Under the pieces are notes generated by a model. The model searched no databases. It was not told the DNA's origin and saw only the letters and a list, made by a program, of their open reading frames with translations. Made by a program: the position numbers and the translations under genes. This document shows, one piece after another, positions 363 to 49,627 of a stretch of 55,007 bases of DNA. Origin of the DNA: a virus (lineage: Duplodnaviria > Caudoviricetes); IMG/VR virus record IMGVR_UViG_3300037153_000557, positions 1 to 55,007 of that record, one strand, 5' to 3'. Each line of letters begins with the position of its first letter. Position 1 is the first letter of the stretch.

Positions 363-1421
363 ATGGGATTTGGGACAAATACCTCATTTGATACTCTGGC
401 CTATGCCAGAAATACCACCGTAGCCAAGTTCGGTGAGGATCGTGCATTCGATGCTATCGAAGTCGCTTTTGAAGCGCACAATGAGCAAATGCAAGAGATG
501 ATGGCAGATCTTGCGGATACGACAACTGATCAGCTTCGAGCATTCGGCGGACCCGATAACATGACTATGGAAGAGTTGGACGAGTTCGGTACTCCAGATG
601 CTCAGAAAATCACGGCGGGTCAAAATGTTGGCTTCCCGTGTAAGTACTATGGCATCGGTCTCCAGTGGACTCGCCAGTACTTTCAAGGCGCTATGGCTTC
701 GGAGCTAGCAGCGCAGGCTACTGCAGCGATGGATGCTGATGTGAAGATGATCAAGCGGGATCTGGCAAGAGCTCTCTTCTACCCGACGAACTACAACTTT
801 GTGGATAGACTTGCTCCAAAGAAGCTCACGCTGCCCGTTAAGGCTCTTATCAATGCTGATAGCTCAGCTATACCGATTGCACCTGATGGCACAACCTTTA
901 ACGGTGCTAGCCATACTCACTACCTTGGTACATCCTCCTTTGCTAATACAGATCTCACGGCTGGTATCAGCACCGTCAATGAGCATTTCTTGAGTGGTTC
1001 AGTTACCATCATGATCAATATTGCCCAGGAAAGCACAGTGAGAGGCTTCACAGGCTTTACTGCTAGACTTCCTGTATCGGTCATCGGTGCTATTACTTCT
1101 CAGCAGACACGTGACAATCTTGACGTGTACAACGTGACAAATCGCTGTATCGGTGATTTTAACGGCGTGGAAGTATGGGTGAAGCCTTGGATACCAAGTG
1201 GTTATGTTCTGTTCTTGCATGGCGGCAATGGTGATAAGGTACTGGTAAGACGCAACCTTGAAGGTGACTCCGGTGACCTGCAGCTTCTGTTCGACTTGGA
1301 AGAGTATCCACTCCGGTCAAAAGCAATGGGTCGAAAGTTTGGCTTTGGTGTGTGGAATAGGTTAGCTGCCGCTGTCCTAGACACAGCTCACAGCTCGTAT
1401 AACCAACCTACTATCAACTGA
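363..1421 (+). CDS. major capsid protein
   Basis: 352 aa; RBS AGGAGG; follows scaffold and decoration genes on the circle and precedes neck genes. Confidence 0.8.
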   Translation: MGFGTNTSFDTLAYARNTTVAKFGEDRAFDAIEVAFEAHNEQMQEMMADLADTTTDQLRAFGGPDNMTMEELDEFGTPDAQKITAGQNVGFPCKYYGIGLQWTRQYFQGAMASELAAQATAAMDADVKMIKRDLARALFYPTNYNFVDRLAPKKLTLPVKALINADSSAIPIAPDGTTFNGASHTHYLGTSSFANTDLTAGISTVNEHFLSGSVTIMINIAQESTVRGFTGFTARLPVSVIGAITSQQTRDNLDVYNVTNRCIGDFNGVEVWVKPWIPSGYVLFLHGGNGDKVLVRRNLEGDSGDLQLLFDLEEYPLRSKAMGRKFGFGVWNRLAAAVLDTAHSSYNQPTIN

Positions 1422-1729: not shown

Positions 1730-2167
1730 ATGAACAGGACCGACGCTACAAACTTGCTCACACAGCAGTATAGAGAGCTTGCAGCTGACGCCGAGTTCAC
1801 ATCTCAGAATACAACAGATGCATATAATGCAGCTATTGACATGAGTTTGCGTCAACTCGGCTATCAGGAGAGTGACCTTGCGACGGCAGATGTCGATCAA
1901 CCGAACGTGCTCAAATACATCGCTCTCTTGAATTACTACACACTGAAACGCTTCTCAACGCTGTATTCGATCAAGTTTGATGTGGAAGCTGGTCAAAAGG
2001 CAATAATGGCAAGCTTGTCACAATCGTTCAAAATGATCACGGTCTTGCTAGAACAAGCTGCTCAGGAACTAACTCAGTATGGCATCTTCGTAGGCAGTGC
2101 GCAAGGCTTCCAAATGGGGCGTATGACTCTAGACTATCTTGAGCCTAGCACGCTATCGGAGTTCTAG
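1730..2167 (+). CDS. putative head-tail adaptor
   Basis: 145 aa, helical-looking; synteny. Confidence 0.55.
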   Translation: MNRTDATNLLTQQYRELAADAEFTSQNTTDAYNAAIDMSLRQLGYQESDLATADVDQPNVLKYIALLNYYTLKRFSTLYSIKFDVEAGQKAIMASLSQSFKMITVLLEQAAQELTQYGIFVGSAQGFQMGRMTLDYLEPSTLSEF

Positions 2168-3530: not shown

Positions 3531-4010
3531 ATGCCAGATATACCAGAAGGCTTAGTACCAGCTCGCTACAAAGGGCATGGCGGCATAAGCCTACAGCCAG
3601 GCGCGAAATACTACAACATTGATGGGTCCCGCCGCAAGGATACAGAGAACAAAAGTGCTCTCTCACTCGAACCTGGTGATGAGATGCTCTGGCGGGATGA
3701 GGATGTGTACGGGAAAACCTTGCTCCATGATCCGAATGGCAACAAACCATCCAAATATCTTGGCCTTGGGAAGGTTGTTCTCCCTGAGCATGCCGATCTC
3801 ACCGACCAGGAGCGCTATGACTTGGGATACGAACATCACATGCCTAGACGCGACTTGGAAGCTATAGTACCTCTTGAGGAATTTCTGAAGCAAAGAGAAA
3901 AGGCTACCAAGAAGCCAAAGAAGTCCAGGGAAGTCTCGCAAACAATCACCATAGAGCAGCCTCTTGACGCTCCTGTTGAGGATGGACAGGAAGAAAGTGA
4001 GCAAGGCTAA
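3531..4010 (+). CDS. hypothetical protein
   Basis: RBS AGGAGGTG before ATG 3531; stop overlaps next start. Confidence 0.6.
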   Translation: MPDIPEGLVPARYKGHGGISLQPGAKYYNIDGSRRKDTENKSALSLEPGDEMLWRDEDVYGKTLLHDPNGNKPSKYLGLGKVVLPEHADLTDQERYDLGYEHHMPRRDLEAIVPLEEFLKQREKATKKPKKSREVSQTITIEQPLDAPVEDGQEESEQG

Positions 4011-5275
4011 TGGCAATACTCACGCCTTTTAGGGGTTCAAATTTTTACATAGGCTTTGCTGAGCAGAGTGACCCTAACACGCCTCAAGCACCTACTGTCT
4101 TTCCACGATGGAGAAATAGTACCAAGGTTGAGATTAATCCCACCTTCTCTGAAGAGGAAGAAGGAGACGGCTCAAGACGTACTACCCTGCTCCTCAAAAA
4201 CGGGCAAGAGGTGAAAATCACACTTGTCAGCTCTCTACGCCCAAATGAGAGAGGCTATTTTGAGAAGTGGGCACATGGGGCAAGTGCCGATACCTACACA
4301 GCGCCTGCCGTGGCTACAACGCTTGCAGGTGCCACGCTTGCAAATGCCACCTCGATCACTGTTCATTCTAATACTGGACTGACAAGCTCGGGGACAATCG
4401 CTCTTGTTCTAGAGCCGGGAACGGCGACTGAAGAGATAGCAATCTTCTCCGTACCTGCTACCGGATCAAGCGATCCGTACACTCTCACAGTGGATAGTAG
4501 TTACAATGGAGGCCATCTCAAGCTTGCTCATGCAAACAGTGGTGTGGTGAAATCCAAAGCCTCTCATGTACTCACAGACCAGAGCGATGGGCCATATATC
4601 ACGGTTGAGGCTGGCTGGGGAATTCTCTACAGTGGTGGTGGAACGGCTATCAGGATCAAAGCGTGCAAAATCGATAAGTTCACTACAGCATGCGAAAAAG
4701 GCAAGATGCTCATGGATACTATCGAGATGACAGGTATCGTGAGCACGGTCCAAGGTTCGGCTGCTACTGTCACACTCGATCAGCATGCTCCATTCATCTT
4801 CTATGAGGGTGCGTACACCATTGATGGCAACTCGACTGCTCAGGCTCTGCGCAAATTCAGCATAGAGCGAACCAACAACCTTGACGCGGATACTCAGGGT
4901 GAAGGCCTCAATCCTACCTGCTTGATCTTTGGGAAATTGGATGTAAAGGTCAAGGCCACGCTCATTCTCACTGCATTTTCACCGATCTACCAGACCTTTT
5001 ACGGAAGCAAGACAGGCACTACTGACTCAACGCAAGTTGGCTTAGGGAGCTTTAATGCTTTATTCACGCAACCGGACACGCTCAACACGCTTGCTTACAA
5101 CATTCTCACGCTTGGCTATACCAATACCCCTTGGCCAGAACCGAAAGAGGACGGCAAGCACTGGGATCTCGATATTGAGGGCACAAGCGTGGTAACACCG
5201 CTTAGTGGGAGTGGGCCAAATAACGCGTATAAGCTGCAAACAACCCTTACCAACACACAGTACGGAGCTTACTAA
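4010..5275 (+). CDS. major tail (tube) protein with inserted Thr/Ala-rich domain
   Basis: 421 aa; YIGFAEQ start and FSIERTNNL motif; upstream of chaperone and tape measure genes. Confidence 0.75.
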   Translation: MAILTPFRGSNFYIGFAEQSDPNTPQAPTVFPRWRNSTKVEINPTFSEEEEGDGSRRTTLLLKNGQEVKITLVSSLRPNERGYFEKWAHGASADTYTAPAVATTLAGATLANATSITVHSNTGLTSSGTIALVLEPGTATEEIAIFSVPATGSSDPYTLTVDSSYNGGHLKLAHANSGVVKSKASHVLTDQSDGPYITVEAGWGILYSGGGTAIRIKACKIDKFTTACEKGKMLMDTIEMTGIVSTVQGSAATVTLDQHAPFIFYEGAYTIDGNSTAQALRKFSIERTNNLDADTQGEGLNPTCLIFGKLDVKVKATLILTAFSPIYQTFYGSKTGTTDSTQVGLGSFNALFTQPDTLNTLAYNILTLGYTNTPWPEPKEDGKHWDLDIEGTSVVTPLSGSGPNNAYKLQTTLTNTQYGAY

Positions 5276-6225: not shown

Positions 6226-9200
6226 ATGGCAGATAGCACCGTTTGGCAACTTGATATTCAACCAGGCAACTCACAAGCTACACTTGACGCCTTTGTGAAC
6301 AGCCTAAGCGTGGTCAAAGAGCAAATTGCTCAAGTTGGTGCCGCCGGTGAGAACTTTGACAAACTCCAAAGCTTCCAAGTCAAAGCTGCCGAAGCTGCTA
6401 AGAAGCTAGAAGTTGCACAAGCTCAAGCGGCTCTTGCCATGAAGAAAGCCCAAGATGCTGCATCAGGTGGCACGGCTTCAGCAGAACAAATAGCTCTTGC
6501 ACAGGCAAAGGCTGGTCTTGCTGCTCAGAAGGTGGAAACAGCACAAAATAACCTAAGTGTGGCTATGGGGAAGGTCCAAGCGGAGGGTGCTCGGCTAGCA
6601 ACAGCCATGCAAGAGGATGCTGAAGCGGCTCTGAACACGAGCACAGCTATGGATACTATCCGTAGTGCTGCTAGTGCCGTGCAAGAAGGTTTGAGCAGTG
6701 CTATCACGTGGATGGGTGACTTTGCCTCACAAGCCATGTCCTCAGCAAGTGAGTTCATCTCGAGCTTCCAAGGCGTTGATGAGGAGATGACCGTGGTCGA
6801 GGATAAGGCACAAGAGTCCTCTGGTGGGTTTCTCTCTAGCTTCAAGGGTGCCATTGGTGGAGTCATGCATTCTTTTGGCGAGTTCGGACTTGCCATGAAT
6901 GGTGTCCAGATGGGCATTCAGATGGTTGGGCAGGCTGTGGATGCGGTGATTGGTCCGGCAATGCAGTATCAAGAGATCTTGCATCAAACGGATGAGGTGC
7001 TCAAATCTACTGGTGATGCGAGTGGGATGACTGCCAAGTCTCTTCAGGACCTTGCAACCTCGCTTGGACAAACGACCTATTTTTCCCGTGACACGGTTCA
7101 GCAAGGGGAAAACCTGCTCCTCACCTTTACCGACATAGGAAAAGACGTCTTCCCCCAAGCCACAAAGACTATGCTTGACATGAGTAAAGCCATGGGGCAA
7201 GACATCAAGTCAAGCGCTATCCAGCTTGGTAAAGCCCTGAATGATCCCGCGCAGGGTCTGACAGCTCTCACCAGAGTAGGCGTGACGTTCACCGAGCAGC
7301 AAAAGAATATGATCAAGCAGATGGTGGCCGCTGGTAACACGGCGGGTGCTCAAAAGATCATGCTAGCTGAATTGCAGCGCGAGTTTGGAGGGAGTGCCGA
7401 TGCGACACAGACGCTGGCTGGTAAATGGCAAATCTTGCAGAACCGCTTTAATGACTTCAGAGAAAACATCGTCATGGCCGTTATGCCTGCTCTGACTGAA
7501 CTCGTTGGGTGGGTAACTGATCATGTCATGCCTGTCCTGGACGGTTTTGCAGCCTTTATTCAGAATGATGTCAACCCTGTTATAGGGGCCTTTGGTGGCT
7601 TTGTCCAAAATAAGATCTTCCCCGTGTTGCAAACATGGGCAGGCTATGTCAATGGAGCCGTTCTCGGAGCCTTCAACGTACTCAAGACCTTCTTTGAGAC
7701 GCATATCATGCCCAAACTCAGCGAATTTTGGGGATTTATTCAGAACAAGATCCTTCCAGTTCTCGAACGATGGGGAGCGGCTATCCAAACGCACGTTCTC
7801 AACAAATTTGCTGAAGTTCGGTCATTCATCGATACGCACATCATGCCTAGGTTGCAAGGTTTTTGGGCATACCTACAAAATAACATTCTCCCCATTCTAG
7901 AGGCTTGGGGACATAACATCCAGGTATGGGTGATAGACAAGCTCCATGACTTAAAAGCCTTTATTGAGAACCACATTGCGCCTACGCTCCAAGCATGGGG
8001 TCACAATATCCAAGTTTATGTTCTAGACAAACTCAGCGATCTCAAGCGTTTTCTTGAAAATAATGTTATACCTGTTTTGCAGTCCTGGGGCCATAACATT
8101 CAAATATGGGTATTGGACAAATTCAACGATCTGAAAACCTTTATTGAACAGCATGTGATGCCTAAATTGCAGGGTTTTTGGAACTATATCCAGACGCAAA
8201 TCGTTCCGGTGCTTCAGAAGTGGGGAAACAATATCAAGTTATGGGTACTGGACAAGCTTGACGAGCTAAAAACTTTTATCGAGACAAAAGTCCAGCCGAA
8301 GCTACAAGAGTTCTGGAATTACATTCAAACATACATAATCCCTGTTCTGGTGACATGGGGGAACAATATTAAAACGTGGGTGATAGACAAACTTGAAGCA
8401 CTAAAGTCCTATATTGAGACAGTCATTATTCCTAAATTAGAGAATTTTAAGGCCTATATTGAAATGCAGCTAGCAAATGCATTTAGCAATTGGGGAGATA
8501 AGATAAAAGGTGTACAAACAAATTTAGATAATTTCAAGACGTTTATTGAAACAAAAGTGATGCCTCCCCTGATGATCATTTGGAGCTTTATTCAAACCTA
8601 TGTCCTTTCTGTTTTCCAGTCTCTGGGCGAGCTCCTCTCCAATCATGTCAGTCCCGATATGGGGAAGCTTGGGGACAGTATTAATAAGGTTATTGGGGCT
8701 TTAGGTCATCTTTGGAACGTTGTTGCACCGGTAATTATGCCTCTTTTAGGAGGTCTTGCCTTTCTTATCTATGGACCACTCGTTTCTGGATTTGGCAAAT
8801 TAAAAGATGTTATTCATGAATTAGGCCCATTTCTTGACACGCTCGCAGAAGGTATATCGCGCATTGCGGACGATTGGTCCGTATGGATCAACGATATAGC
8901 AAATGCAATCGATTGGATCAAGAGGTTTGGCGCTGAGATTAACAAACTCCCAAGCCAAGCGGTCAGCTTTGTGGCTTCTCACTTGCCAAGTTTTGATACT
9001 GGCGTCGAGAACTTCGGTGGTGGTCTGGCCTATGTCCATGCAAAAGAGATGTTGGTCAATCTTCCCAAAGGTGTCTCGGTGTGGAACCCTGCAAAGACCG
9101 CACAATTCATGCAAACCGTCAAACTTCCGCCTCCTGTACCAGGTAATACCGCCATCTCTTCACAGACTACGTCACAACCCAATTCCGCAACCAATGACCA

Positions 9201-9378
9201 GATTGCTGGCTTACTGGCGGGTATCCTTGCTGAATTGCAAAAGCAAGGCAAAAATGCGGCCAGCATTGTCATGAATGCAAACGTCTCTTCTGGCTCATTC
9301 AATGCTCAAAGGATCAATCAGATTATTCAGAGCTTGGGAGGCAAAGAGATCGAAGCGATGCAAAGGGGGGCTTGGTAG
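6226..9378 (+). CDS. tape measure protein
   Basis: 1050 aa; AIQLGKALNDP..GLTALTRVGVTF core and periodic Trp/Phe amphipathic repeats. Confidence 0.92.
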   Translation: MADSTVWQLDIQPGNSQATLDAFVNSLSVVKEQIAQVGAAGENFDKLQSFQVKAAEAAKKLEVAQAQAALAMKKAQDAASGGTASAEQIALAQAKAGLAAQKVETAQNNLSVAMGKVQAEGARLATAMQEDAEAALNTSTAMDTIRSAASAVQEGLSSAITWMGDFASQAMSSASEFISSFQGVDEEMTVVEDKAQESSGGFLSSFKGAIGGVMHSFGEFGLAMNGVQMGIQMVGQAVDAVIGPAMQYQEILHQTDEVLKSTGDASGMTAKSLQDLATSLGQTTYFSRDTVQQGENLLLTFTDIGKDVFPQATKTMLDMSKAMGQDIKSSAIQLGKALNDPAQGLTALTRVGVTFTEQQKNMIKQMVAAGNTAGAQKIMLAELQREFGGSADATQTLAGKWQILQNRFNDFRENIVMAVMPALTELVGWVTDHVMPVLDGFAAFIQNDVNPVIGAFGGFVQNKIFPVLQTWAGYVNGAVLGAFNVLKTFFETHIMPKLSEFWGFIQNKILPVLERWGAAIQTHVLNKFAEVRSFIDTHIMPRLQGFWAYLQNNILPILEAWGHNIQVWVIDKLHDLKAFIENHIAPTLQAWGHNIQVYVLDKLSDLKRFLENNVIPVLQSWGHNIQIWVLDKFNDLKTFIEQHVMPKLQGFWNYIQTQIVPVLQKWGNNIKLWVLDKLDELKTFIETKVQPKLQEFWNYIQTYIIPVLVTWGNNIKTWVIDKLEALKSYIETVIIPKLENFKAYIEMQLANAFSNWGDKIKGVQTNLDNFKTFIETKVMPPLMIIWSFIQTYVLSVFQSLGELLSNHVSPDMGKLGDSINKVIGALGHLWNVVAPVIMPLLGGLAFLIYGPLVSGFGKLKDVIHELGPFLDTLAEGISRIADDWSVWINDIANAIDWIKRFGAEINKLPSQAVSFVASHLPSFDTGVENFGGGLAYVHAKEMLVNLPKGVSVWNPAKTAQFMQTVKLPPPVPGNTAISSQTTSQPNSATNDQIAGLLAGILAELQKQGKNAASIVMNANVSSGSFNAQRINQIIQSLGGKEIEAMQRGAW

Positions 9379-10440
9379 ATGGGATATGCATCATTTGGCT
9401 CGTATTCACTAGATAGCTTCTCTTCAGGATTGGGAAATATCTTGCGTGCAAAGGATGTGAGTGCTCCTGAAGTGGCTGCGATCACCTCTCCAATTGCACG
9501 CGGCTATGGGGTAGTAAAGAACGGAGAGCAAATCCTCTATCGTGACATTGATGTCATAATTAAGATTGTAGGCTCATCACGATCTGACCTTGTATCACGC
9601 TTGGATGCACTCAAGAAGGCATTGCGACTACGAGGCCAGCAATTAGTCATTTACGAGGATCTGAGGTACTTTGCAAACACAGACTGCATTTCTGCTCCTG
9701 CTACCCTGTCCGGTGCTGCAAATATCTCAGCGGCTCTAGTGACAATGAAATTTCGCTCATACGATCCAATGGCCTATGCAGCCTCGTCTAGTTCATATGA
9801 TACGGGCGTTGCTGTACTAACTTTATCTGGTGGCACATGGAACTTTGTAGCTATCTCTCTTGCTGGTGGCGGGACAATTGAAACTTATCCACTTATTCAC
9901 ATTATTAACAAAACCAGTACTGGATCGACGACTACCACAACAGCCAGAAATAGTGGCACGGCCTATACAACCCTTCCTGTGTCTGCTACAAGCTTTAGCG
10001 CCTCGGTCGGGGATCGACTTATCTTAAGCAACGGCACAAATACGCAAACAGTCGCCGTTGCTACGGCATTCTCATCAGGCGCTACCACCATTACCGTTAA
10101 TTCATTTACAGCAAATGCAACCTATGCCTCTGGTGCAACTGTAACGAAGGATACCCAATGGTCGGCTATCACTGTATCGCAAACTCAGGACTCGCAGACG
10201 CTTACCACGTACTCGACCAGTGGCACGCCGCTTCCCTCTGCCAATAACGATTATGTCGATATCCAGTGTGACCCAATTGTTGGCATGTCAATTATCACGA
10301 ACGGGTCCGGTGAAGTGAGTGATCCAGTGGGCGTTTTTCCCACGCTCAATCCTGACTCGACAACGTTCAATATTGCTATTACCAGTAATTCGGCTGTGAG
10401 TGCGGAAGCAGTGTTCTCATGGTCAAGTCGATATCTATGA
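9379..10440 (+). CDS. distal tail (Dit-like) protein with inserted domain
   Basis: Follows the tape measure gene; FRSYDPMAY, GTIETYPLI and C-terminal WSSRYL motifs. Confidence 0.7.
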   Translation: MGYASFGSYSLDSFSSGLGNILRAKDVSAPEVAAITSPIARGYGVVKNGEQILYRDIDVIIKIVGSSRSDLVSRLDALKKALRLRGQQLVIYEDLRYFANTDCISAPATLSGAANISAALVTMKFRSYDPMAYAASSSSYDTGVAVLTLSGGTWNFVAISLAGGGTIETYPLIHIINKTSTGSTTTTTARNSGTAYTTLPVSATSFSASVGDRLILSNGTNTQTVAVATAFSSGATTITVNSFTANATYASGATVTKDTQWSAITVSQTQDSQTLTTYSTSGTPLPSANNDYVDIQCDPIVGMSIITNGSGEVSDPVGVFPTLNPDSTTFNIAITSNSAVSAEAVFSWSSRYL

Positions 10441-10453
10441 AAGGAGGTGTATA

Positions 10454-11809
10454 ATGCCAAATACACCTTTTGATATGTCTGTTAATAAAATACAAGTGGT
10501 GAAAGTGTATGATCCAAATATGAATTTTATTGATGTTATACGTGATGCTCCTTATCTCAAATGCAAAGAGAATATCAGTGCTGCCGCCGATACGGTAAAA
10601 ATCACTCTCCCAAGACCGATAGACGCTTTTGATGGAGCCGGTCAACCTGGTTCTATGAATACGATTGTCAAAGGCAATATTGTCCAGTGGTGGCTCTATG
10701 GAGCGGGACTCCCCACAACAGGATTGCTCAAATACCAAGGTATTATCGATGAGGTGGCCCCTACCTTGGATGAGGGCGGGGCGGAAAGTGTGGATGTTAC
10801 TGTTACCCCGTTCAGTCAAATCTTAGGTGACCATGGGGTAGACAGTACCGCTATCACATTTGGAACCTCAGGCAGTAGTGGCACCTATATCGATACAGGC
10901 GCAATTTTTCGGGCATTCTTTACCGGAAGCTACGTGGATCGGAGTGGGAATACTATTTCTGTTCTTGATCCAGTAACGAGCAAGCCCTATGGATACCCCT
11001 ATACGATGGACCCTGCTAGTCTGGTCAGCACTGGACAATTCGTACAATTCTCTTCCCAAAGTCAAAAACTTATTTCTATATTTAATGCTCTATTAGCTCT
11101 ATCTACATCTGTCTATTTTTATCGGATGAATCAGAATAAAACAGCCTTTTTAGGAGCTGTTCCGTCTAAACCAACTCACACACTCTTGCTCGGCCAGCAC
11201 ATTTCATCTATTCAATACAGTGAGAGCAATGTGCCGCGCAAGAATGTGATTAACATCATCGGCAACGGCGTGTCCGCAAAAGCTACGGGAACCTCAGCAG
11301 ATCCTGGCCAACTCGGACCACGGGTCTACTACAAGAGCGATAACCGCATTACCGATCAGAACACAGCCAATAATCTGGCCGCTGGTATCCTCTCCATTCT
11401 TGATCAAGAGACGATCCGAGCAAAAATCACCGTGCCTGACTATCGAGGAAGTCCTCAATCAGGTCGTGGCTACGATATCGAAACATTCAAGGTCGGAGAC
11501 ACGCTGAAGATCGTTGATGCGCGAGCACCTGGCACCTCTTCAGTAGGCGCAGGCTCGAAATGGGGAAAAATGGTTTGGGGATCAGGCAAATGGGGAGCAC
11601 CGACGACTCAGACCATCTGGGGAGGCTTCTTATGGGGGCAAGCATTATGGTCAGCAAGCGTGGGAAGCATTTTCAATACAGTTGTGACTATTGTGTCCAT
11701 TCAATATGACTACTTTAGTGTAACGCTAGAGTTAGGAGCAAGACAGCCAAGTTTGAGTAGAGCCTTATTCGATATTGAATTACGTATGCAAGATGCAACA
11801 TTAGTTTGA
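10454..11809 (+). CDS. tail tip / baseplate hub (Tal-like) protein
   Basis: RBS AAGGAGGT before ATG 10454; follows Dit; FKVGDT..I and VTLELG motifs; WG-repeat insert. Confidence 0.65.
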   Translation: MPNTPFDMSVNKIQVVKVYDPNMNFIDVIRDAPYLKCKENISAAADTVKITLPRPIDAFDGAGQPGSMNTIVKGNIVQWWLYGAGLPTTGLLKYQGIIDEVAPTLDEGGAESVDVTVTPFSQILGDHGVDSTAITFGTSGSSGTYIDTGAIFRAFFTGSYVDRSGNTISVLDPVTSKPYGYPYTMDPASLVSTGQFVQFSSQSQKLISIFNALLALSTSVYFYRMNQNKTAFLGAVPSKPTHTLLLGQHISSIQYSESNVPRKNVINIIGNGVSAKATGTSADPGQLGPRVYYKSDNRITDQNTANNLAAGILSILDQETIRAKITVPDYRGSPQSGRGYDIETFKVGDTLKIVDARAPGTSSVGAGSKWGKMVWGSGKWGAPTTQTIWGGFLWGQALWSASVGSIFNTVVTIVSIQYDYFSVTLELGARQPSLSRALFDIELRMQDATLV

Positions 11810-11821
11810 AAAGGAGTAGAT

Positions 11822-12601
11822 ATGCCTAGTGGTATTTTTGGAGCAACGGTTACTACGCTGACGAACGGAACGACAGCAAATGCCTTAACAATCTGGGGCC
11901 TTTAGGGAGTAATCCCTATCGAACAACCTCTCTGGAGTCGGTAAACCTCCCAACTGGAATAAGTGGACAATACCGAGCGAAGCTACACAAAGATGTGAAC
12001 GGCACGTGTAACGACTGAGCGAGAGGCTCCTATCAGAGACGATGGGATGGATCTACAGTCTGAGCTCAGCAGGAATGTTGAGAGAGTAACAGAAATGTCT
12101 ACTCCTGCATGTGATACATGTAAGTAACAAAATATTGCAGATGTAATGGCTAGCTTGAATAGCTTGAAAAGTAATGGTGTCAATAATGACGGCGCACTTA
12201 TTCAAACCGATGGGAGCGGAAACATTATCACTCCAGTTGGGAGATTACGCGGTTTCTTTTTCACCACACCTTTTGCGCATTCTAGCAACGGTACACTCAA
12301 TAGCGGAAATACCGTCAATTTCACAGCCTGGGGAAACGGCGGCGTCCCATCGGGTGCCATTGGCATTTTTGTCAACGCATTCTTTACGCCAAGTGCGGCA
12401 GGAACGTTTGCCACATTCACGCCACACGGGACCGTGTGGAGCAATGGCAACTATCCTGCTGTGGGGACCGCATTTAACAGTACAAATATCTGCATGGGAT
12501 CATTCATTTTACCATTAGATGCATCGGGAAAATTTGACGTGAAAGCAAACAGTGGCAACTGTGTCGGTTTTTACATCCAAATGTATGGGTATGTCCTGTA
12601 G
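11822..12601 (+). CDS. short tail-fibre/receptor-binding-type protein, intron-split (exons 11822-11885 and 12138-12601; 175 aa)
   Basis: RBS AAGGAG. Splicing restores ...TLTNGTTANA-S-DVMASLNSL..., a typical fibre N-terminal anchor motif. Confidence 0.8.
11886..12137 (+). ncRNA. group I self-splicing intron, 252 nt, no homing endonuclease
   Basis: P1 GCCU/GGGC with U-G at the 5' splice site; P10 AUCUG/CAGAU; P3 CCUCUC/GAGAGG; P7 GACUG/CAGUC; terminal G at 12137; removal restores the reading frame. Confidence 0.88.
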
Positions 12602-12788
12602 CTTACCATGTGTGAATTTGCGCATACTCTGACTCATTGTCCAGTGTTTCAGGTGACAAACGAATTACTTTAAGGAGAGCAGATAAAATGTAACGAACGA
12701 CCTTCATAATAGGATTCCTTTCCAAAGGAAATACATCTTTCATATCAGAACGAGCATATAAAGCAATAGTAACAGAAGGAGGAATGAA

Positions 12789-13292
12789 TTGAGCGGCTTT
12801 GGTAGTACGCCAACGACAACGACAGAATCGCCTTTATCTGCTAATCAGGTTTTTATTGGCAGTGTGGCTACTCCTGACACGCCTAATGGGGACTTGACAG
12901 CATTAGAAGGTGGTCCTATATCTACTGACTCTAATGGCAACAAGACCGCACCTGCTTCGCTGTATATCAAGGATGGCAACGATGTCACACAAGGCGCAAA
13001 AGCTGATACAGCTAGCACAGATGCGACAACAGCTAACACCAAGATGTCCTTTCTCAAAGGGCTCGTTAAAATTTTTGCTGACATCTGGGATAGCACCAAC
13101 CATCGAATACATGTGGATGGATCGGGAGTCACACAGCCTGTAAGCGGCTCGGTATCAGTCAACACGATCTCGAATTATGCTACTCAGTCAGCAAATCCAG
13201 GCACAGCTATCTTTGATGTATGTGTCGAGATCACCATAGGATCGGAGGTGTATGATCCACAACCAAGCCGAATACAAATTAGGAAGATTTAA
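12789..13292 (+). CDS. virion-associated / fibre-like protein, possibly truncated
   Basis: RBS AAGGAGG, TTG start; Thr/Ser-rich with a VDGSGVTQPVSG unit. Confidence 0.5.
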   Translation: MSGFGSTPTTTTESPLSANQVFIGSVATPDTPNGDLTALEGGPISTDSNGNKTAPASLYIKDGNDVTQGAKADTASTDATTANTKMSFLKGLVKIFADIWDSTNHRIHVDGSGVTQPVSGSVSVNTISNYATQSANPGTAIFDVCVEITIGSEVYDPQPSRIQIRKI

Positions 13293-13302
13293 GGAGGTTT
13301 CA

Positions 13303-14256
13303 ATGGCCCAATTCCCGGGAGCAAAAGACAAATTTGTTGACAGGGATCGTGTCTGGATCAACCAGAATGACCAGGCAACGATCGTCATTCACGGAACGGG
13401 GGGCAATCCCAATCAAACAGCCGATCAACTCGGGGACTACTTTGAGACAACGCCTCTCATGACTTCAGTCCACTACGGAATTGATCGGGCAGGCAATATT
13501 GATCAATATGTCCTTGAGCAAGATGGGTGCGCAGGAGAAGGCATCCTTGACCCTGGCCACGATCCGTTCTGGGATCAATACGCGCCGAATCCCAACTGGC
13601 ACAGTCTTGGAGTCGAAACAGAGAACGACCAGACAAACAGTCTTCCACTCACCGATCCGCAAAAGCAGACGCTGTTCAGATTGGTCAAGCACTGGGTCGA
13701 CAAATACGGCATTCCACTTTCGCACATTAAAGGACATTTTAGCTTAGAACCCGTAGAACGACACAATTGTCCAGGACCTAACTTTCCCTGGCAAGAACTC
13801 TTTGCTTACTTGAATGGAGGAACTATGCAAATACCAACCGGATGGACCGACGATGGAACGACACTCAAAGGACCCAACGGGATACCTGTCGTTCTTGGTT
13901 TCAGAGACCACGTCCTCAACTCAAATTGGGACCCAGCTAACTGGCCTTTGGAACCTGAGAAGCACCTGACTGGCCTAGAGATGAGCAATCCCACACTTGG
14001 TGATGGGCAATCTCAAATCTTCCGATGGAAGCGACTCGAATACACGCCCAAGATGGGCGTCTTTGAGGGCTGGTTAGGGCAGGAATTGCTCTGGTATCAG
14101 CAGGAAGTCAAGCAGCTTGAGACTGAAATAGCTACGCTCACACAACCAGCCCAGCTCTTAGAGCAGCTTAACGGCCTGATCGCGCAAGCTAGTACAGCCA
14201 ATGCTCAAATCGGCTCGGTGCTTACACAGGCTGCTAAGCTTACCACACTGCAATAA
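13303..14256 (+). CDS. endolysin, N-acetylmuramoyl-L-alanine amidase (Amidase_2-like)
   Basis: IVIHGT, SVHYGID, SLGVE, IKGH and CPG zinc-amidase motifs; RBS AAGGAGG. Confidence 0.88.
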   Translation: MAQFPGAKDKFVDRDRVWINQNDQATIVIHGTGGNPNQTADQLGDYFETTPLMTSVHYGIDRAGNIDQYVLEQDGCAGEGILDPGHDPFWDQYAPNPNWHSLGVETENDQTNSLPLTDPQKQTLFRLVKHWVDKYGIPLSHIKGHFSLEPVERHNCPGPNFPWQELFAYLNGGTMQIPTGWTDDGTTLKGPNGIPVVLGFRDHVLNSNWDPANWPLEPEKHLTGLEMSNPTLGDGQSQIFRWKRLEYTPKMGVFEGWLGQELLWYQQEVKQLETEIATLTQPAQLLEQLNGLIAQASTANAQIGSVLTQAAKLTTLQ

Positions 14257-14587: not shown

Positions 14588-14896
14588 ATGCTGACCATTT
14601 CCTACATCGATATTCTGCAAATCATATTTTGCCTAGCTGGTATTATACTACCTCAATTCTCAGCTAAATCAAAATATGCAGGTGCTATAGTTATCGCAAC
14701 CATGTTTCTCGTCTCGTTTGCCGGCGCATGGGTTGTTCATGCACTTGATCCTAAGCAAACCTTTAGTGCAGTGAACGCTCGTTTGTTCTCACTTATAGGC
14801 ATATCGCACATTGTTTTCATCTCAGTACAGTCATCCATGTATTGGAAGCTCATATTCCAAAGAGTCGGCTTTTACAAGAAAGAAGAGGAGCCATGA
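14588..14896 (+). CDS. membrane protein, about 3 TM (holin-like)
   Basis: RBS AAGGAGGTG; hydrophobic helices; charged tail. Confidence 0.55.
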   Translation: MLTISYIDILQIIFCLAGIILPQFSAKSKYAGAIVIATMFLVSFAGAWVVHALDPKQTFSAVNARLFSLIGISHIVFISVQSSMYWKLIFQRVGFYKKEEEP

Positions 14897-15270
14897 ACGA
14901 ACAAATCACTCTTGCACTCATTCCCTATGTCGTTCCATCCGTCCTGGGACTGATCGTCTACATCTATCATCAGGTCTGGCAGCGCACGCCCGAGAAGCAA
15001 CGCCATGCCCTTGAGCAACTTGCCACTCCCATTGTGCAGATGGTCGAGCAGCAGTACAAAGATGCCACTCCACAGCAAAAGAAAGAGGCGGCGCTGCATG
15101 CCATCTCGCTCGCATTTACCGCGTTCAATTTGCCAGAGCCAGATGACGCGGTCATTAACGCTTTCATCGAGTCGGCTGTCTTTGAGATGAATCGACTTCG
15201 ATCAGCTAATCCGGTCACACAACCTTTACCCCAAATTACACGTACATCTCAACTCAAGAAAGGTAATTAA
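14893..15270 (+). CDS. holin, LL-H-like
   Basis: N-terminal TM, then VQMVEQ..KKEAA..IESAVFEM pattern. Confidence 0.7.
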   Translation: MNEQITLALIPYVVPSVLGLIVYIYHQVWQRTPEKQRHALEQLATPIVQMVEQQYKDATPQQKKEAALHAISLAFTAFNLPEPDDAVINAFIESAVFEMNRLRSANPVTQPLPQITRTSQLKKGN

Positions 15271-20377: not shown

Positions 20378-21481
20378 TTAAGAAACCTGCTCTTTTGCAT
20401 CCCGATTAAAGAAGTGTAAAGCGAGTCTTGCATAGCCAGCGGCATTGGCGCATTCCGGTCTTATTGGCACCGATAAACGATTAGCAAAAAGTGCTCTTAC
20501 ACTGTCCTCAAAGTAGTAGGCACCCCCGCCGACTAAGAGGACATATTCAGCATCAGAAGCCACGACATCGCTTCTCAAAGAGCTAGCCCAGGACCGTTTA
20601 ATAAAGCCTGAAATTCGTTTGCCAACTTCGCCTAAAGACTTGCTTAAAAGAGCATCGACTCTCATGTGATGAGCCCCAGCATTCCTGACGGTTGCAACAC
20701 TGTTATAATCCTTGGTATCCACAAAACAATTCTGGAGTTTGGCAGCATCGCTCGCAGATAAAGGATAGCGAAACTCTTTCTCAAAAGACTCGGTTAAACT
20801 ATCGATTGCAGACTCAACCCCAATGTCATGAGACTTGCATTGATCTTTAATTGGTGTTTGACCATTCACCATATAGATATCAGTTGTCCGCCCTCCAATA
20901 TCGATAATACCCGCCTTGACTTTCCCTATGGCCCCATGTGCAATATTGGCACCGGAGCCCTCCATGATGACCTTCCTGATGGCGATGTGGGCTATACGCC
21001 TCTCACCATCTAAGACAAACTCGTGATCGCCTTCGAGCGCGTTTTTAATCGCCTCAATATTCTCCTCATTGTGCGTGAGGATAGGTAGACCAGTGACCAC
21101 GATCAACCCATACTCGCGATCTTTGATCAAAGTACCAGACGTTGCCAGTAGCATAGCCAGACTACGAACACTCCAGTAACGAGTGATGTCCCCACGGCTG
21201 GTCAATGTCATAGCATCGGATGATGGGGCCTGTTCGATTGCCAGATCCCCCACGTAAAACTCATTGCCATTGACGGCTATGATGTGAGCAGTGTCGTGGA
21301 CCGCTCCGATTTGACGCAGGTCCCCATTGGTTGACATGGCCTCCAACTCCTCACGTGAGCCCTCATAGAGCGTACTAGGCATGGTGAGCTCACGAAGATT
21401 ACCTGCAATGTAGGTAATTCCACACGTTTTACTATTGCCATAATCATGGCCGTATGGGTAGGTGTTGTAATGGTAATTCAT
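20378..21481 (-). CDS. parM: ParM/StbA-family actin-like partition ATPase
   Basis: DYGNSKT, VVTGLP, EGSGA, IIDIGGRTTD, LLVGGGA, ANAAGY actin-fold motifs. Confidence 0.9.
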   Translation of the reverse strand: MNYHYNTYPYGHDYGNSKTCGITYIAGNLRELTMPSTLYEGSREELEAMSTNGDLRQIGAVHDTAHIIAVNGNEFYVGDLAIEQAPSSDAMTLTSRGDITRYWSVRSLAMLLATSGTLIKDREYGLIVVTGLPILTHNEENIEAIKNALEGDHEFVLDGERRIAHIAIRKVIMEGSGANIAHGAIGKVKAGIIDIGGRTTDIYMVNGQTPIKDQCKSHDIGVESAIDSLTESFEKEFRYPLSASDAAKLQNCFVDTKDYNSVATVRNAGAHHMRVDALLSKSLGEVGKRISGFIKRSWASSLRSDVVASDAEYVLLVGGGAYYFEDSVRALFANRLSVPIRPECANAAGYARLALHFFNRDAKEQVS

Positions 21482-22160: not shown

Positions 22161-23786
22161 TTAAGCCTCCTCTAATTCCATACCCTTACGAGCCATGTTG
22201 CTAATTGATCTCATCACCTGCTCATACTCAAAACCAGCCTCTTGATAGCCTTGTCCCTTGCCTTTCTTGACTCTCCAGACACGCTCTATGATCCCATCTT
22301 TCGTGTTTATCCCAGAGGCCATCGCTTCTAGGACTTGGGATACTCGTAGATTGGCCTGAGAAGCCTCTTCAGGCTGTTCTTCCATCTCCGTTCTATCCAC
22401 ATTCCATCCACGTGGAGAGACCTCTTTGACGGTTACTTTGGAAGGCTCGTTTTTTGCCTTGAGTAAAGCCTTGACATCGTAGTCAGGGGCCTCCACCAAG
22501 TCGGTACATCCCGTAGCCTCTACCACACATTGCCCTTTTTGCTTGCTTTCCCAGTTCGAGTTAAGCAGTTCTGAGCAAACAAAACCAGCAGCCCTGGCCG
22601 CCGTGGGCTTGACTGCAAAGCTCACATTGATCCCAAAGTTGTTGTTAAACGCTTTCAGGTCCTCATCTGCATAATCCACCTGAGCACAAGCCATAAGATG
22701 GATGAATACTTTGAGCCCGCGAATAGCCAGCTCGTTTAAGTCATCGAGCAGCGTTGATCGTGTAGCCCCGTCAAGGTCCCTGTGTTTCTTCAAGCTCAGG
22801 AACTCCTCAATGTAGACCAGGATATGAGGCTGTTGGGCTTGCTCCGATTCTGGTAGGCTATAGCGCCTATCCATCTCATTGCGGATATAGTGCAGATATT
22901 CAGCTACCTGTCTTGGGTTGCGAGCGTGTAACTCAACTTCTTTCCTGCCTACATTCAAGACTGCCAAGTGCTCCATATCCTCAAAGAGTTTGCTCGTTTT
23001 GTTCTCTAGATCAAGCAAAGCAATCACCATCGTGTCGGGATCATGCGTCTTGGTCACCAGATCTATGAGAGCAGCCGCAAAGCAACTCTTGCCCTTCTGA
23101 CTTGATCCGATAATGAGAATATGCGAGCTATCAATATCGACAATCGGGACCCCATTTTGTCTGAGTGAGTTCCCAAAAGGCAACTGAAAACTATTGCGCT
23201 CTACTAGCTTCACCAAGTCCTCTATCTTTGGCTTGCCAGTTTGTCCAGGAGGGAGCAGCCCCATCGTCTCGCTATTGCTCTCGCTCTTCACGCTGTAATG
23301 CATGCTGTGCAAAGCCGGGTGCTCACGCATATTCCCCCTAATGAGTTGCCAACGCCCGGTCAATCCATCCCTTACGACTAAGTTCCCCTGCTCATCCAGA
23401 TGAGAGATATCACTGAGCCGCTTTGCCTCTGCCAACATCCTTTGTGCCTCAGCTTGCTTGATGGCGTTCTCAGCAGCCTTGGATGAGATCTCAACCAGTG
23501 CCGTCTTGTAGTAGGTCCAAGTCGAAAGGCCATATTTCACGCCAGCGCCAATACCAGCAAGAACAACTGCTGGTATGAGTAGTTGAGCTCCGAACCGAAT
23601 CAGTGAGCCCGATGCTGCTACCCAAATTCCCCAATTAGCAAACATGGCAGTCAGGAAGCCAATGAACAGGATCACCGAGATAGATGAGGCAATCACAAAC
23701 GTCACTAGTGATTTCAGGCCGTCTGCTGGTGAAATCTCTCTATCCATTTCAGCTATTTGCACTTCTTGGTTAAATTTTCTTTTCAC
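22161..23786 (-). CDS. membrane-anchored FtsK/SpoIIIE-family ATPase (TraB/TcpA-like)
   Basis: Two N-terminal TMs; Walker A GSSQKGKS; EMDRRY; Walker B ILVYIEE; LAIRG...Q; possible C-terminal wHTH. Confidence 0.8.
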   Translation of the reverse strand: MKRKFNQEVQIAEMDREISPADGLKSLVTFVIASSISVILFIGFLTAMFANWGIWVAASGSLIRFGAQLLIPAVVLAGIGAGVKYGLSTWTYYKTALVEISSKAAENAIKQAEAQRMLAEAKRLSDISHLDEQGNLVVRDGLTGRWQLIRGNMREHPALHSMHYSVKSESNSETMGLLPPGQTGKPKIEDLVKLVERNSFQLPFGNSLRQNGVPIVDIDSSHILIIGSSQKGKSCFAAALIDLVTKTHDPDTMVIALLDLENKTSKLFEDMEHLAVLNVGRKEVELHARNPRQVAEYLHYIRNEMDRRYSLPESEQAQQPHILVYIEEFLSLKKHRDLDGATRSTLLDDLNELAIRGLKVFIHLMACAQVDYADEDLKAFNNNFGINVSFAVKPTAARAAGFVCSELLNSNWESKQKGQCVVEATGCTDLVEAPDYDVKALLKAKNEPSKVTVKEVSPRGWNVDRTEMEEQPEEASQANLRVSQVLEAMASGINTKDGIIERVWRVKKGKGQGYQEAGFEYEQVMRSISNMARKGMELEEA

Positions 23787-29260: not shown

Positions 29261-29974
29261 AAAAGTCTTGAGTTTCTTAGACAAAGTGGCGCTCGGTGGC
29301 TATTCGCTCATAGCTCGTTTTAGATCTGATGAGGAATTACGACAGATGAAAAGCGATGCTGAGAGAGAAATCCAGAACGAGCTTGACGGCGTGTATGGCG
29401 ATCTTGATCAGGAAAGCGTGGATGATTGGAAGATAGATTTGAGCGTTGCTGAAAAAGAGTTACAGCGCAGAACTCGTAGGAAGTAGCATAGTGGCACGGG
29501 CTGGCCGTACAGCCCCATTTGAACAATATGAACCATTGCAGAGACGAGCAGAACAAGCCTATTTGCCTAGATTGTGCCAACAAAAGCAAATTTAGGGACA
29601 AATTGGCGAATGCCACGAATGCGAGCGGAAAGAGCATATTTTGTGCTGAATGTGGCAAGGGAATCTTGAGCGTTCAGCAAGAAGTAGCTGTACGAAAAGC
29701 AGAAAGAAGGAACACATGAAGAGAATACAGAGACAAGATCTTGGCTATTGGGGCAACATCGAAAAGCGTTTTCGAGAGCTCTATCCCAACGGCATGACAC
29801 AAGAGGAGATCGACGCGGCTAATGCTGAGATGTGGCGCAATGCCTACCCAACGCTAGAAATGTCTCTAGAGGACGAGCAAGAGCAACAGGACTACTTGCA
29901 TCCCTAGTGTCCGTATGGTAGGATGAGAGTATATCTTGTAGTTAAGCCTATAAAGGCACAAGAAGGAGAGAGTT

Positions 29975-30169
29975 ATGCCGGAAAACAAAGAATTATTAAC
30001 AGTTTCAGAGGTAGCACAGGCATTGCGAGTAGATAATACGACAGTGAGGCGTTGGCTGAAAAACGGTGCAATGCAAGCCGTCTCGTTACCACATGTCGGC
30101 AAGCGAATGGCGTATCGCATCAAGCGAGCCACGTTAGACGGGCTACTTGCAACTACAACACAAGCTTAG
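29975..30169 (+). CDS. excisionase-like HTH (HTH_17)
   Basis: LLTVSEVAQALRVDNTTVRRWLKNG. Confidence 0.85.
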   Translation: MPENKELLTVSEVAQALRVDNTTVRRWLKNGAMQAVSLPHVGKRMAYRIKRATLDGLLATTTQA

Positions 30170-30194
30170 TCATCCATCCGTCCATCCATTCATT

Positions 30195-30266
30195 GCCAGG
30201 ACTTCGGTTCTGGCTTTTTTGTGCAAGAAAAAGACCTGCACCAGCCTCACTCATGCAGGTCTTCTC
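30195..30266. terminator. pair of intrinsic terminators
   Basis: GCCAGGAC-TTCG-GTTCTGGC-T6 (plus) and A5-GACCTGCA..TGCAGGTC (minus or bidirectional). Confidence 0.7.
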
Positions 30267-31075
30267 TGGAGTCGAAGCTCCTCGTTACTCGGATAGCTCA
30301 GTATAGCACATCCGTCACGCTACACGGTCTTTCTCGCACGACACATCCATTCTCTCGTCTCTCACGGACAAAGGGCATTCTCGGCCTTCTCAGTGCGATT
30401 TAGGGGCATTTTGGCTCGATTAGGTAAGCTAGAAGCATGGATACTACCAATCAAGAATACTTGCTCACTTACCTAGAGCAATGCAAGCTCAAAGCTCTCG
30501 GTGCCTACGAATACGCACAAAAGCTGCAAGATGAGAGTGTGAAGGAAAAACTTGAGACGATTGTCTCGGATGTGATAGGGTTGACAGAATACGCAAAAGG
30601 CAAAAGAAAAGAGGCTAGCGACTAGGCCAACCTCTCCACAAGACCGCTCTTTTCCACTTCTTGGCACCAGTTCTCAATAGCTTCAGCCAGTGTGTGACCA
30701 AAACCGAAGAAGTTTCCTAGAGCGACAAATATTCTATTGGGACCTACCTGAATATACATCCTATGCTCTTGGCATAGCTGCAACAGATCATCCGTCTTGT
30801 TCATACTTTCCTCACTAGCCTCTTTCGGTAGACCTTGGCTCGCTTGGTGCTCACACATCTGGTGATAACACCAAGCTTAGCACCGAACTGGTAATGCCTA
30901 TTCGCTCTACACCATCTGCGCATAGGCTTGATATAATTCTCTCTTATCCACGTATGCAGCTCACGCTTTCTTTGCAATATTCTAGGCAAGGCACGTTTAT
31001 GAGCATCTTGGAAAGAGATGTCATGCTCAGCACAGCTAGGAGCTTGCATGAGAGCCTCAAGGTAGGTTTTGTCCA

Positions 31076-31168
31076 TTATTTCTTGCCCCTATGATACCAG
31101 CGATAGAGCCAACCAGCCACAATGAGAGCAACGGCTATCGTGGTACAGACGTACCAAAGCCAGTTCAT
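31076..31168 (-). CDS. 30-aa single-TM peptide MNWLWYVCTTIAVALIVAGWLYRWYHRGKK (type I toxin-like)
   Basis: Translated by hand; RBS AGAGAGGA; stop overlaps next start. Confidence 0.6.
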   Translation of the reverse strand: MNWLWYVCTTIAVALIVAGWLYRWYHRGKK

Positions 31169-31638
31169 ATGTCTATCCTCTCTTTACAGGCCTAGTATAC
31201 TCATTTTTGAGCAGGGAGTCACTACTTGCTTTGGAGGCTGGTGATTGGTTCCCTGCTCAACCCACGAACTAATCTTCCTGCTCTTGCTCCATGCTTCTTT
31301 TCAATTGCCTGATAGGACGTACAATACAGTCTTCCTCATGACTATAGCCATGACAGTACTCGCATAGCGAAATTCCATCTAATGTAAAAAAGGTGTCTAA
31401 TTTCGACAAAATCTCAAGTGTAAGTTTTTCTTGTTCTGGTGTCATAGTCTTATCCTTTCTAACTGTGCTATAATTGAGCTGAGCAGAGCAACCTACTACT
31501 ATCTGCAACTACTGCCTCACTGCCAAACACGCTCTGCTCGACCCAAACCTCAGTAGTATACTGTACATGAGAGCAGTGCGCCCCCATCAGGTTTACTTAT
31601 GCCCTAACGAAGAGCACCGCTCTCTTTTGCTTCTCTCG

Positions 31639-31929
31639 TTACTTTCTTCTCACTAATGTATTTATTTGCTGAAGCGCAGCCCTTCTCTCAGCAACCACAA
31701 TCGCACGTTCGACATTCTCGAAATGCTTACTCAAACGTTTCAAAAAGAGCAGTCTTACAATCCACCCACCATTGCCATGAAATGCGCTCTCATCCCAATA
31801 TGCGCTTGTCTTATCTTGTCGTGTGAGATAGGCGTCCATGATGTTTAACGATGACTTCGTACCACTAAAACGGATAGCATAGGTGGTTGTATTGATTTGC
31901 GTGATGTCTTGAATAATCAGCTTGTGCAT
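31639..31929 (-). CDS. hypothetical protein
   Basis: Coupled downstream of initiator B. Confidence 0.55.
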   Translation of the reverse strand: MHKLIIQDITQINTTTYAIRFSGTKSSLNIMDAYLTRQDKTSAYWDESAFHGNGGWIVRLLFLKRLSKHFENVERAIVVAERRAALQQINTLVRRK

Positions 31930-31930
31930 G

Positions 31931-35464: not shown

Positions 35465-35582
35465 TGGGATGGGAAGGCTAGCAGTGAGGAAAGCCTTCCC
35501 AAAGAGCTGGGTGAGAGGCTGCTAGCATGAAACAGCCTCTCAAAAAGAAGTATACAATACTATGACAAGGAGTGTGAACATC

Positions 35583-47610: not shown

Positions 47611-47638
47611 ATACCAGATAATTACCATTATCTTGCTT
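47611..47638. promoter_or_regulatory. dif-like recombination site
   Basis: ATACCAGATAA-TTACCA-TTATCTTGCTT (11-6-11 layout, ATAA-N6-TTAT core). Confidence 0.65.
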
Positions 47639-47656
47639 TCAGAAGGAGGTTTACAA

Positions 47657-49535: not shown

Positions 49536-49627
49536 ATGGACGTCTTGATTGCAATCGCCGTCGTCTTCTTCTGTATCGGCTGTTTTGCATTTGGCTATGC
49601 TGCAGCCCTGTGGCTGGAGAGTAGGCA

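Follow-up and report, generated by a model that had tools for sequence, protein, structure and literature searches.

A probable compact group I intron lacking an open reading frame in a tail-fibre-type gene of an uncultured soil phage

How does a gene in the tail module of a phage come to stop after 27 codons from a strong ribosome-binding site (RBS) and an ATG codon, when the same peptide heads much longer proteins in its relatives? This question is raised by positions 11,822 to 12,601 of a linear IMG/VR virus record (IMGVR_UViG_3300037153_000557). The whole stretch analysed, 55,007 bases with a completeness estimate of 93%, is referred to below as the window, and the genes read from the record are those of an uncultured, integrase-bearing tailed soil phage. 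The answer favoured here, with a probability of about 0.88, is that the segment 11886-12137 represents a compact group I intron without an open reading frame (ORF), inserted in a gene of 175 codons for a short tail-fibre-like protein of the receptor-binding type. What is directly established is where the insert begins and ends, that its removal restores a frame identical to that of intronless homologues, that the core helices and the family match are present, and that the context is of the fibre type.

Translation of the unspliced frame from ATG 11822 gives 27 codons (MPSGIFGATVTTLTNGTTANALTIWGL) and is truncated, because the TAG that ends it lies in frame within the intron (Table 1). The original prediction had a TAA terminating this frame after 22 codons; that triplet, at 11886-11888, is out of frame (the codons read GCC TTA ACA) and the stop is TAG at codon 28, a correction that leaves the conclusion unchanged. 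Deletion of 11886-12137 fuses exon 1 to the ORF 12146-12601, as had been proposed, and yields an open frame of 528 nucleotides (nt), made up of 175 codons and a stop codon, which extends to 12601 and has zero internal stops. At the junction, ...AAT GCC T is joined to CA GAT GTA ATG..., and a Ser codon, split as U and CA, is recreated. The predicted ligated junction reads AATGCCT followed directly by CAGATGTA, and the N-terminal module of the spliced product reads ...TTANA-S-DVMASL.... Four placements of the boundaries keep the frame, and only the one with U11885 before the intron and G12137 as its last base has both U at position -1 and G at the 3' end. An alternative 3' end at G12082, the end of the Rfam model, was rejected: the join gives GCC-UAG, an immediate stop, and therefore the 55-nt tail with helices P9.1 and P9.2 is part of the intron.

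The start signals agree with this gene structure. The RBS foreseen before ATG 11822 is represented by the Shine-Dalgarno sequence AAGGAG, 5 nt before the start codon, and GGAG-type sites also precede the ATG in intronless relatives. No Shine-Dalgarno sequence is present before ATG 12146. The exon-2 ORF from this codon, 151 amino acids (aa) long, is the part that gene callers report: in the public protein collection the gene is present only in this form (P0001), which is the truncation that the original prediction had expected.

Homologues of the protein settle the case. A protein search with the exon-2 ORF retrieved 16 proteins at E <= 0.001 among 35 candidates, 15 of them non-self. The search for intronless homologues, suggested together with the original prediction, was successful: in 10 of the 15 the exon-1 peptide stands directly before the exon-2 sequence. 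Across the junction, P0005, P0006 and P0011 read ...TTANASDVMASL.... A different N-terminus was found in four proteins (P0003, P0004, P0007 and P0008), and the first residue of the remaining one, P0016, is the exon-2 Met. Columns 1-21 of the alignment are occupied by the translation of exon 1 and those from column 23 onwards by that of exon 2; the open column between them, where the split codon places Ser, is occupied by Ser in seven of the ten proteins, by Ala in two and by Pro in one. The spliced product is gap-free over the first 40 alignment columns against all eight full-length homologues compared, and its first 30 residues are identical to those of P0005 and P0006 at 29 positions. The DNA sequences themselves show an unbroken gene in six distinct relatives, L004, L005, L008, L009, L014 and L015 (not counted as distinct are L006, L007, L012 and L013, which repeat L005, and L002, L017 and L019, which lie on the contig of L014). 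A profile of the first 50 residues, run against 1.84 billion representatives, matched 28 proteins of 101-200 aa at E <= 0.001: the module begins at the first residues in 26 of them and is internal in one, and one is the truncated ORF of the window. Exon 1 is intact and conserved, which supports the joining of the two exons, because conservation is not expected of a sequence that is never joined.

Analysis of the insert showed the presence of the elements of a group I intron. In a scan of 1.2 kb, the Rfam model RF00028 (Intron_gpI) matched positions 11876-12082 over model positions 1-253 (35.8 bits, E 3.3e-7), with the conserved U of the model aligned to 11885; the posterior probability of the alignment to the consensus is high for the conserved segments J8/7-P7 and P7-P3'. 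Helices were assigned from the cmscan alignment, a base-by-base pair check and local folds. P1, P10, P2, P3, P4, P7, P8, P9, P9.1 and P9.2 are fully paired in the pair check, and an unconstrained minimum-energy fold recovers P2, P3, P4, P5, P6, P8, P9, P9.1 and P9.2. The guide AUCUG-GGGC, claimed to pair with both exons and to form a U-G wobble at the 5' site, does so through P1, with the wobble U11885.G11896, and through a P10 of five pairs; P3, P7 and the terminal G, also claimed, were located at the positions given in Table 1. The 3' splice site was set by the reading frame of the homologues. No insertion is present between P7 and P3' in this intron, which is the place of P7.1/P7.2 in introns of subgroup IA. 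On the same strand, the intron contains no ORF longer than 26 codons. Domains of the HNH, GIY-YIG and LAGLIDADG endonucleases were absent from the 50 window ORFs scanned against Pfam, a set consisting mostly of ORFs of at least 110 aa, and therefore a partner endonuclease is not in evidence.

A number of observations weigh against this assignment. The RF00028 check proposed with the original prediction gave the end-to-end match described above, at a score that lies below the curated gathering score of 50. The match is unlisted in the whole-window scans, made with the gathering cut-off and at E <= 0.1; in the latter it was evidently dropped by the speed filters. The fold energy of the intron does not differ significantly from that of shuffled sequences (z = -1.67; 12 of 200 shuffles were as good). 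The 3' end of the Rfam model is G12082, not 12137, and the last 55 nt were assigned by hand. Helix P5 is weak, and the P5/P6 alignment of the model includes non-standard pairs. No homologue of the intron that could reveal covariation was found: viral contigs contained none by an exact 24-mer from the P2 region or by a two-anchor P7/P3'...J8/7 pattern, and blastn of 11000-13300 gave nothing at E 1e-5. With the intron as query, blastn among 50,697 phage records gave only short, weak matches; the best of them, which counts in favour of the assignment, was to the 5' core of the known terminase intron of Lactobacillus phage LL-H (63 nt, 75% identity, E 0.02). A search for sequencing runs that contain the stretch listed no RNA run. 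In two DNA sequencing runs, a probable source contig spans the stretch and two short fragments of a relative lie outside the intron; no joints were found, and these data are uninformative on splicing and on variants that lack the intron.

The proposed course of splicing is as follows. The gene would be transcribed as one RNA, in which the intron folds into a P1-P9 ribozyme. An external guanosine would attack after U11885, held in the U.G wobble by the guide GGGC, and the guide AUCUG would align exon 2 in P10; the exons would then be ligated after the terminal G12137. The codon UCA for Ser, and with it the conserved module at the N-terminus, would thereby be restored. Splicing is inferred to take place and to be efficient. 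The intron is most simply regarded as a selfish passenger lodged in the best-conserved DNA of a gene that is otherwise mosaic.

A second intron was found in a homologous gene. The homologue on the metagenome contig L010 reads MPSGIFSASVTNLTNGTTANASD, is then interrupted by an insert of 255 nt (571-825), and resumes with VMASLNS.... This insert scores 80.3 bits with RF00028 (E 6.1e-19), above the gathering score, and is the sole match of the model in 47,068 bases of 10 loci. Read by eye, its splice site follows U570, with a GUGAU/GUCAC P1 containing a U.G wobble, and it ends with G825. It is located after the Asp codon of the same motif, 5 nt downstream of the site in the window, which lies inside the Ser codon. 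The two introns share the N-terminal module and gene family in which they reside, the absence of an ORF, a similar length, the U.G wobble and the terminal G, but they differ in sequence, the intron of L010 has 36 extra nt between P7 and P3', and its P10, read by eye, comprises only two pairs, compared with five in the window. The L010 insert is read as an independent case of a group I intron in a homologous gene. The presence of two different introns 5 nt apart, in the one part of this mosaic fibre gene whose protein sequence is conserved, fits persistence where the target cannot drift, and the two form a natural pair for the question of how introns without ORFs reach and keep a site. These two unrelated introns lie where the conserved anchor module meets the exchangeable receptor-binding part, and thus, in a more speculative reading, gene conversion linked to introns could help to shuffle host-range domains. 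A group II intron domain (RF00029, 59.8 bits) was also found in L010 at 1840-1914 (+), about 500 nt downstream of the split fibre gene.

Further split alleles may be hidden in protein databases. Three database proteins begin at exon 2, namely, P0016 and P0017 (both MASLNS...) and P0019 (MVMASL..., on 8 contigs). P0017 has a full-length counterpart in P0018 (200 aa), and P0019 in P0021 (131 aa, on 5 contigs), which belongs to the same 90% cluster; this suggests a polymorphism of intron presence and absence. P0019 is probably a split allele of the L010 type, because the intron of L010 ends with ...ATG before GTT ATG, which can be called as MVM. All three proteins may thus derive from intron-split genes, as far as can be judged from the proteins, and searches of viral contigs with P0017 and P0019 retrieved only intronless or differently headed relatives.

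The gene itself is well supported in silico as a tail-fibre or receptor-binding type, as the original prediction had it, because of its position, the fold predicted for it and the modular make-up of its relatives. The protein matched no family in Pfam or PHROGs. An AlphaFold model was built for P0002, the closest full-length homologue (76% identical to the spliced product), from an alignment of 17 sequences. The mean predicted local distance difference test score is 77.2; confidence is low at the N-terminus, residues 21-34 form a helix, and residues 63-180 are confidently modelled as a beta-sandwich. The C-terminal domain of this model is most similar to that of the Bdellovibrio fibre Bd2133 (Foldseek E 9e-5; Z 10.3, root-mean-square deviation 2.8 A over 109 residues), and the next unrelated entry has Z 7.8; the lower entries, C1q heads, BclA, PRD1 P5 and carbohydrate-binding modules, lie at Z of about 6-8, a range described as common by the tool itself. 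The same N-terminus of about 45 residues precedes at least four unlike C-terminal parts (those of P0002/P0005, P0017/P0018/L010, P0019/P0021 and P0020), the same C-terminal parts occur behind a different N-terminus in P0003 and L018, and the core motif heads a Phage Tail Collar domain protein in L016. The product is inferred to be a virion fibre.

In contig L018, two adjacent small fibre-like genes (1899-2282 and 2275-2859) share another N-terminal module (...Y(T/N)..GPF..G..P...), and their C-terminal domains are those found elsewhere behind the MPSGI module. This arrangement is interpreted as modular exchange between two anchor types.

Among the other explanations considered, the one that fares best adds a role to the intron: it may have been co-opted as a translational gate, its 3' tail hiding the RBS and start of the fibre gene until it is spliced out. 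On balance this is judged unlikely. The segment 12095-12106 of the tail is complementary to 11812-11823, a stretch that runs from the Shine-Dalgarno sequence across the spacer to the AU of the start codon, over 12 positions with 11 Watson-Crick pairs and 1 G.U pair (-18.5 kcal/mol). For 11812-11824, the predicted probability of being unpaired is 0.07 in the precursor, 0.48 in a transcript ending at 12082 and 0.28 in the spliced RNA, so the masking would be confined to the unspliced RNA; the means for shuffled sequences are 0.48 (100 tail shuffles) and 0.46 (150 whole-intron shuffles), and none in either set reaches 0.07. The pairing survives when the core helices of the ribozyme are enforced, with an advantage of 5.6 kcal/mol, and the complementarity reaches into the phage-specific spacer GUAGAU, which is different in all seven relatives inspected. 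In addition, reviews describe masked RBSs of intron ORFs as keeping ribosomes off the ribozyme (PMC3073962).

Such a gate could act in two ways. It might protect the ribozyme, whose 5' exon has only 64 nt, from ribosomes, or it might make the synthesis of the fibre depend on splicing-permissive conditions, which is the conditional checkpoint suggested in the original prediction and for which the predicted pairing is the sole hint. If true, this would be a simple coupling of translation to splicing, in which translation of an adsorption protein is licensed by splicing. However, the masking is a thermodynamic prediction from a single sequence, made post hoc, and by a rough hand estimate the chance of at least 11 of 12 matches to a 20-nt RBS zone within about 460 nt is about 0.02. 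The pairing of 12095-12106 competes with P9.1, coupled transcription and translation would leave the RBS free for about 280 nt of synthesis before the complementary segment exists, and the RBS of the spliced mRNA is itself predicted to be only moderately open (0.28). In the intron of L010 no masking is predicted (0.54, whereas shuffled sequences average 0.56 and 16 of 60 of them are as low), and for L010 masking as a common feature of introns at this site is thereby rejected. Moreover, translation of the upstream exon usually helps the splicing of bacterial group I introns, according to the same review (PMC3073962). In the literature searched, including the available sections of the reviews PMC3073962 and PMC3984707, a group I intron that masks the RBS of its own host gene was not described.

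It is improbable that the intron has decayed and no longer splices, in which case the gene would be dead or only the 151-aa ORF from ATG 12146 would be made. Decay would agree with an Rfam score below threshold, a weak P5 and a folding z-score that is not significant, and P0016, P0017 and P0019, which start at the exon-2 Met or at Val-Met, would mean, at face value, that N-terminally short forms exist. Yet the core helices, the U.G wobble, P10 and the terminal G are all intact, exon 1 is undamaged and nearly identical to that of the homologues, and ATG 12146 lacks a Shine-Dalgarno sequence. As for the short proteins, P0017 and P0019 have the close full-length relatives named above, L010 demonstrates directly that a short form of this kind is an intron-split gene, and in 26 of the 28 family representatives the module begins at the first residues. 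Least probable of all is an origin other than an intron, whether as a small transposable element, as an artefact of assembly or as a pair of separate small genes: the stretch occurs in only one independent assembly and the sole run that fully covers it is probably the source of the record, but the junctions 11885/11886 and 12137/12138 show neither terminal inverted repeats nor a duplicated target site, the group I model is matched end to end, the boundaries exactly fit group I chemistry and restore the frame, and the peptide of the 27-codon "gene" is the N-terminus of the homologues, hence not a separate gene.

The group I intron in the window belongs to a known kind of element, and the tail gene of a phage has been shown before to contain an intron without an ORF. 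For the mycobacteriophages BAKA and Optimus, Pope et al. (2013, PLoS One 8:e69273, PMC3706429) demonstrated by reverse transcription PCR that an ORF-less intron of 265 bp is spliced from a minor tail gene, and they also list earlier phage introns, including one in the capsid gene of Tuc2009. The rarity of introns in adsorption genes implied by the original prediction was therefore overstated. As there described, the BAKA/Optimus intron is likewise small, ORF-less, located in a tail gene of a temperate siphovirus, preceded by an exon-end U, terminated by G, and was found by means of intronless relatives. It differs in that its splicing is known from reverse transcription PCR and its type is given as "most likely group I", whereas the intron in the window matches the Rfam model and its splicing is predicted; the genes and intron sequences are unrelated.

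The intron in the terminase large-subunit gene of phage LL-H (EF455602.1) is also a group I intron in a late gene of a siphovirus, and its P3-P5 core is the best, weak match to the window. Unlike the intron in the window, it carries ORF168 and resides in a packaging gene, the coding sequence of which is annotated as joined, and RF00028 finds only its 3' part (22.5 bits). The similarity is too weak to suggest common descent.

Free-standing endonucleases spread ORF-less introns, as reviewed by Hausner et al. (2014, PMC3984707); the intron in the window resembles such introns in being ORF-less and in having a highly conserved phage-gene target, but the 50 scanned window ORFs contain no endonuclease domain. 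In-frame stops just inside group I introns, effects of ribosomes on splicing and masked RBSs of intron ORFs are treated by Edgell et al. (2011, PMC3073962). The predicted masking in the window is similar to that in phage T4, where the RNA structure of the intron hides an RBS and ribosomes are kept off the ribozyme, but the site masked in T4 is that of the ORF within the intron itself, whereas in the window it would be the RBS of the interrupted host gene, and the mask would be removed by splicing.

Structurally, similar compact forms are found among bacterial tRNA introns. The introns of Azoarcus and Anabaena tRNA genes, of subgroup IC3, are compact, and their P2 and P9 are capped by GNRA tetraloops. 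Features shared with the intron in the window are a core of about 200 nt, the GUAA loop of P2, the GGAA loop of P9 and the lack of an insertion between P7 and P3'; the intron in the window differs in its location in a protein-coding phage gene and in the extra tail with P9.1 and P9.2. In the titles and abstracts of the literature searched, no group I intron inside a receptor-binding gene was named, which does not prove that none exists. Prediction of the hosts of phages relies mainly on receptor-binding proteins, and hidden introns of this kind degrade this annotation; in the present case a sub-threshold Rfam score together with intronless homologues sufficed to recover the true gene.

Table 1. 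Coordinates of the split gene, its putative intron and the neighbouring genes in the window
Feature	Position	Strand	Description
Shine-Dalgarno AAGGAG	11811-11816	+	read from the sequence, 5 nt before ATG 11822
Split fibre-type gene	11822-12601	+	follows two tail genes spanning 9379-11809
Exon 1	11822-11885	+	64 nt; 21 codons and first base (U) of split Ser codon; encodes MPSGIFGATVTTLTNGTTANA
Intron (putative)	11886-12137	+	252 nt, group I, without endonuclease ORF
P1	11882-87/11894-99	+	4 Watson-Crick and 2 G.U pairs; U11885.G11896 wobble
Internal guide AUCUG-GGGC	11891-11899	+	GGGC (with U11894) pairs with 5' exon; AUCUG pairs with exon 2
P10	11891-95/12138-42	+	AUCUG with CAGAU, 5 Watson-Crick pairs
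Ribozyme core	11903-12082	+	P2-P9
In-frame stop TAG	11903-11905	+	18 nt inside the intron; first bases of P2
P2	11903-08/11913-18	+	GUAA loop
P3	11927-34/12020-26	+	11927-31 and 11933-34 paired with 12020-26
P4	11938-43/11971-76	+	
P5	11950-55/11962-66	+	weak, 5 pairs with bulge
P6	11977-12007	+	extended hairpin
P7	12013-17/12056-60	+	
P8	12028-34/12041-47	+	
J8/7	12048-55	+	
P9	12065-71/12076-82	+	GGAA loop
3' extension past the Rfam model	12083-12137	+	P9.1, P9.2 and A/U-rich tail
P9.1	12084-88/12100-04	+	
Anti-RBS segment (AUGUCUACUCCU)	12095-12106	+	inverted repeat I1; predicted from partition-function folds and shuffles
P9.2	12108-12/12116-20	+	
Terminal intron base	12137	+	G
Exon 2	12138-12601	+	last two bases of Ser codon, then DVMASLNSLKSNG...; TAG stop 12599-12601
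Major head protein	363-1421		Pfam/PHROG scans
Tail protein	4010-5275		Pfam/PHROG scans; followed by a chaperone-like ORF
Tape measure	6226-9378		PHROGs, E 1.4e-28
Tail gene	9379-10440		Sipho_tail match sub-threshold, 21.2 bits against a cut-off of 24.2
Tail gene	10400-11809		without Pfam or PHROG family
ORF 3' of the split gene	12789-13292		without Pfam or PHROG match
Amidase_2 endolysin	13252-14256		Pfam/PHROG scans
Holin	14842-15270		Pfam/PHROG scans

The split gene is located in the tail module, downstream of the tape measure and tail-tip genes and before the lysis genes (Table 1). No other copies were found in the record. A scan of a genome collection gave a single match, a motif-sharing protein (L003) in a metagenome-assembled genome of Rhodospirillales, and a protein-atlas look-up returned viral clusters only, with scores of at most 0.86, which serve as leads only.

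No tRNA genes were found in the window, and the region 29658-31931, about 2.3 kb, contains no ORF of at least 110 codons on either strand. A HEARO RNA (RF02033, 122.4 bits) is encoded at 48832-49089 (+), between the integrase gene (47633-48592) and a terS-like ORF (49625-50305). An ORF of HNH/IscB size does not adjoin it, and the element therefore has the look of an orphan, as RNAs of this type normally occur together with a gene for an IscB-type nuclease. Among the other genes of the window are those of an FtsK/SpoIIIE-like ATPase (22161-23786, -), a RecT recombinase (35562-36416, +) and a ParM/ALP actin-like segregation protein (20378-21481, -); the presence of a partition gene in a phage hints at a plasmid-like prophage stage.

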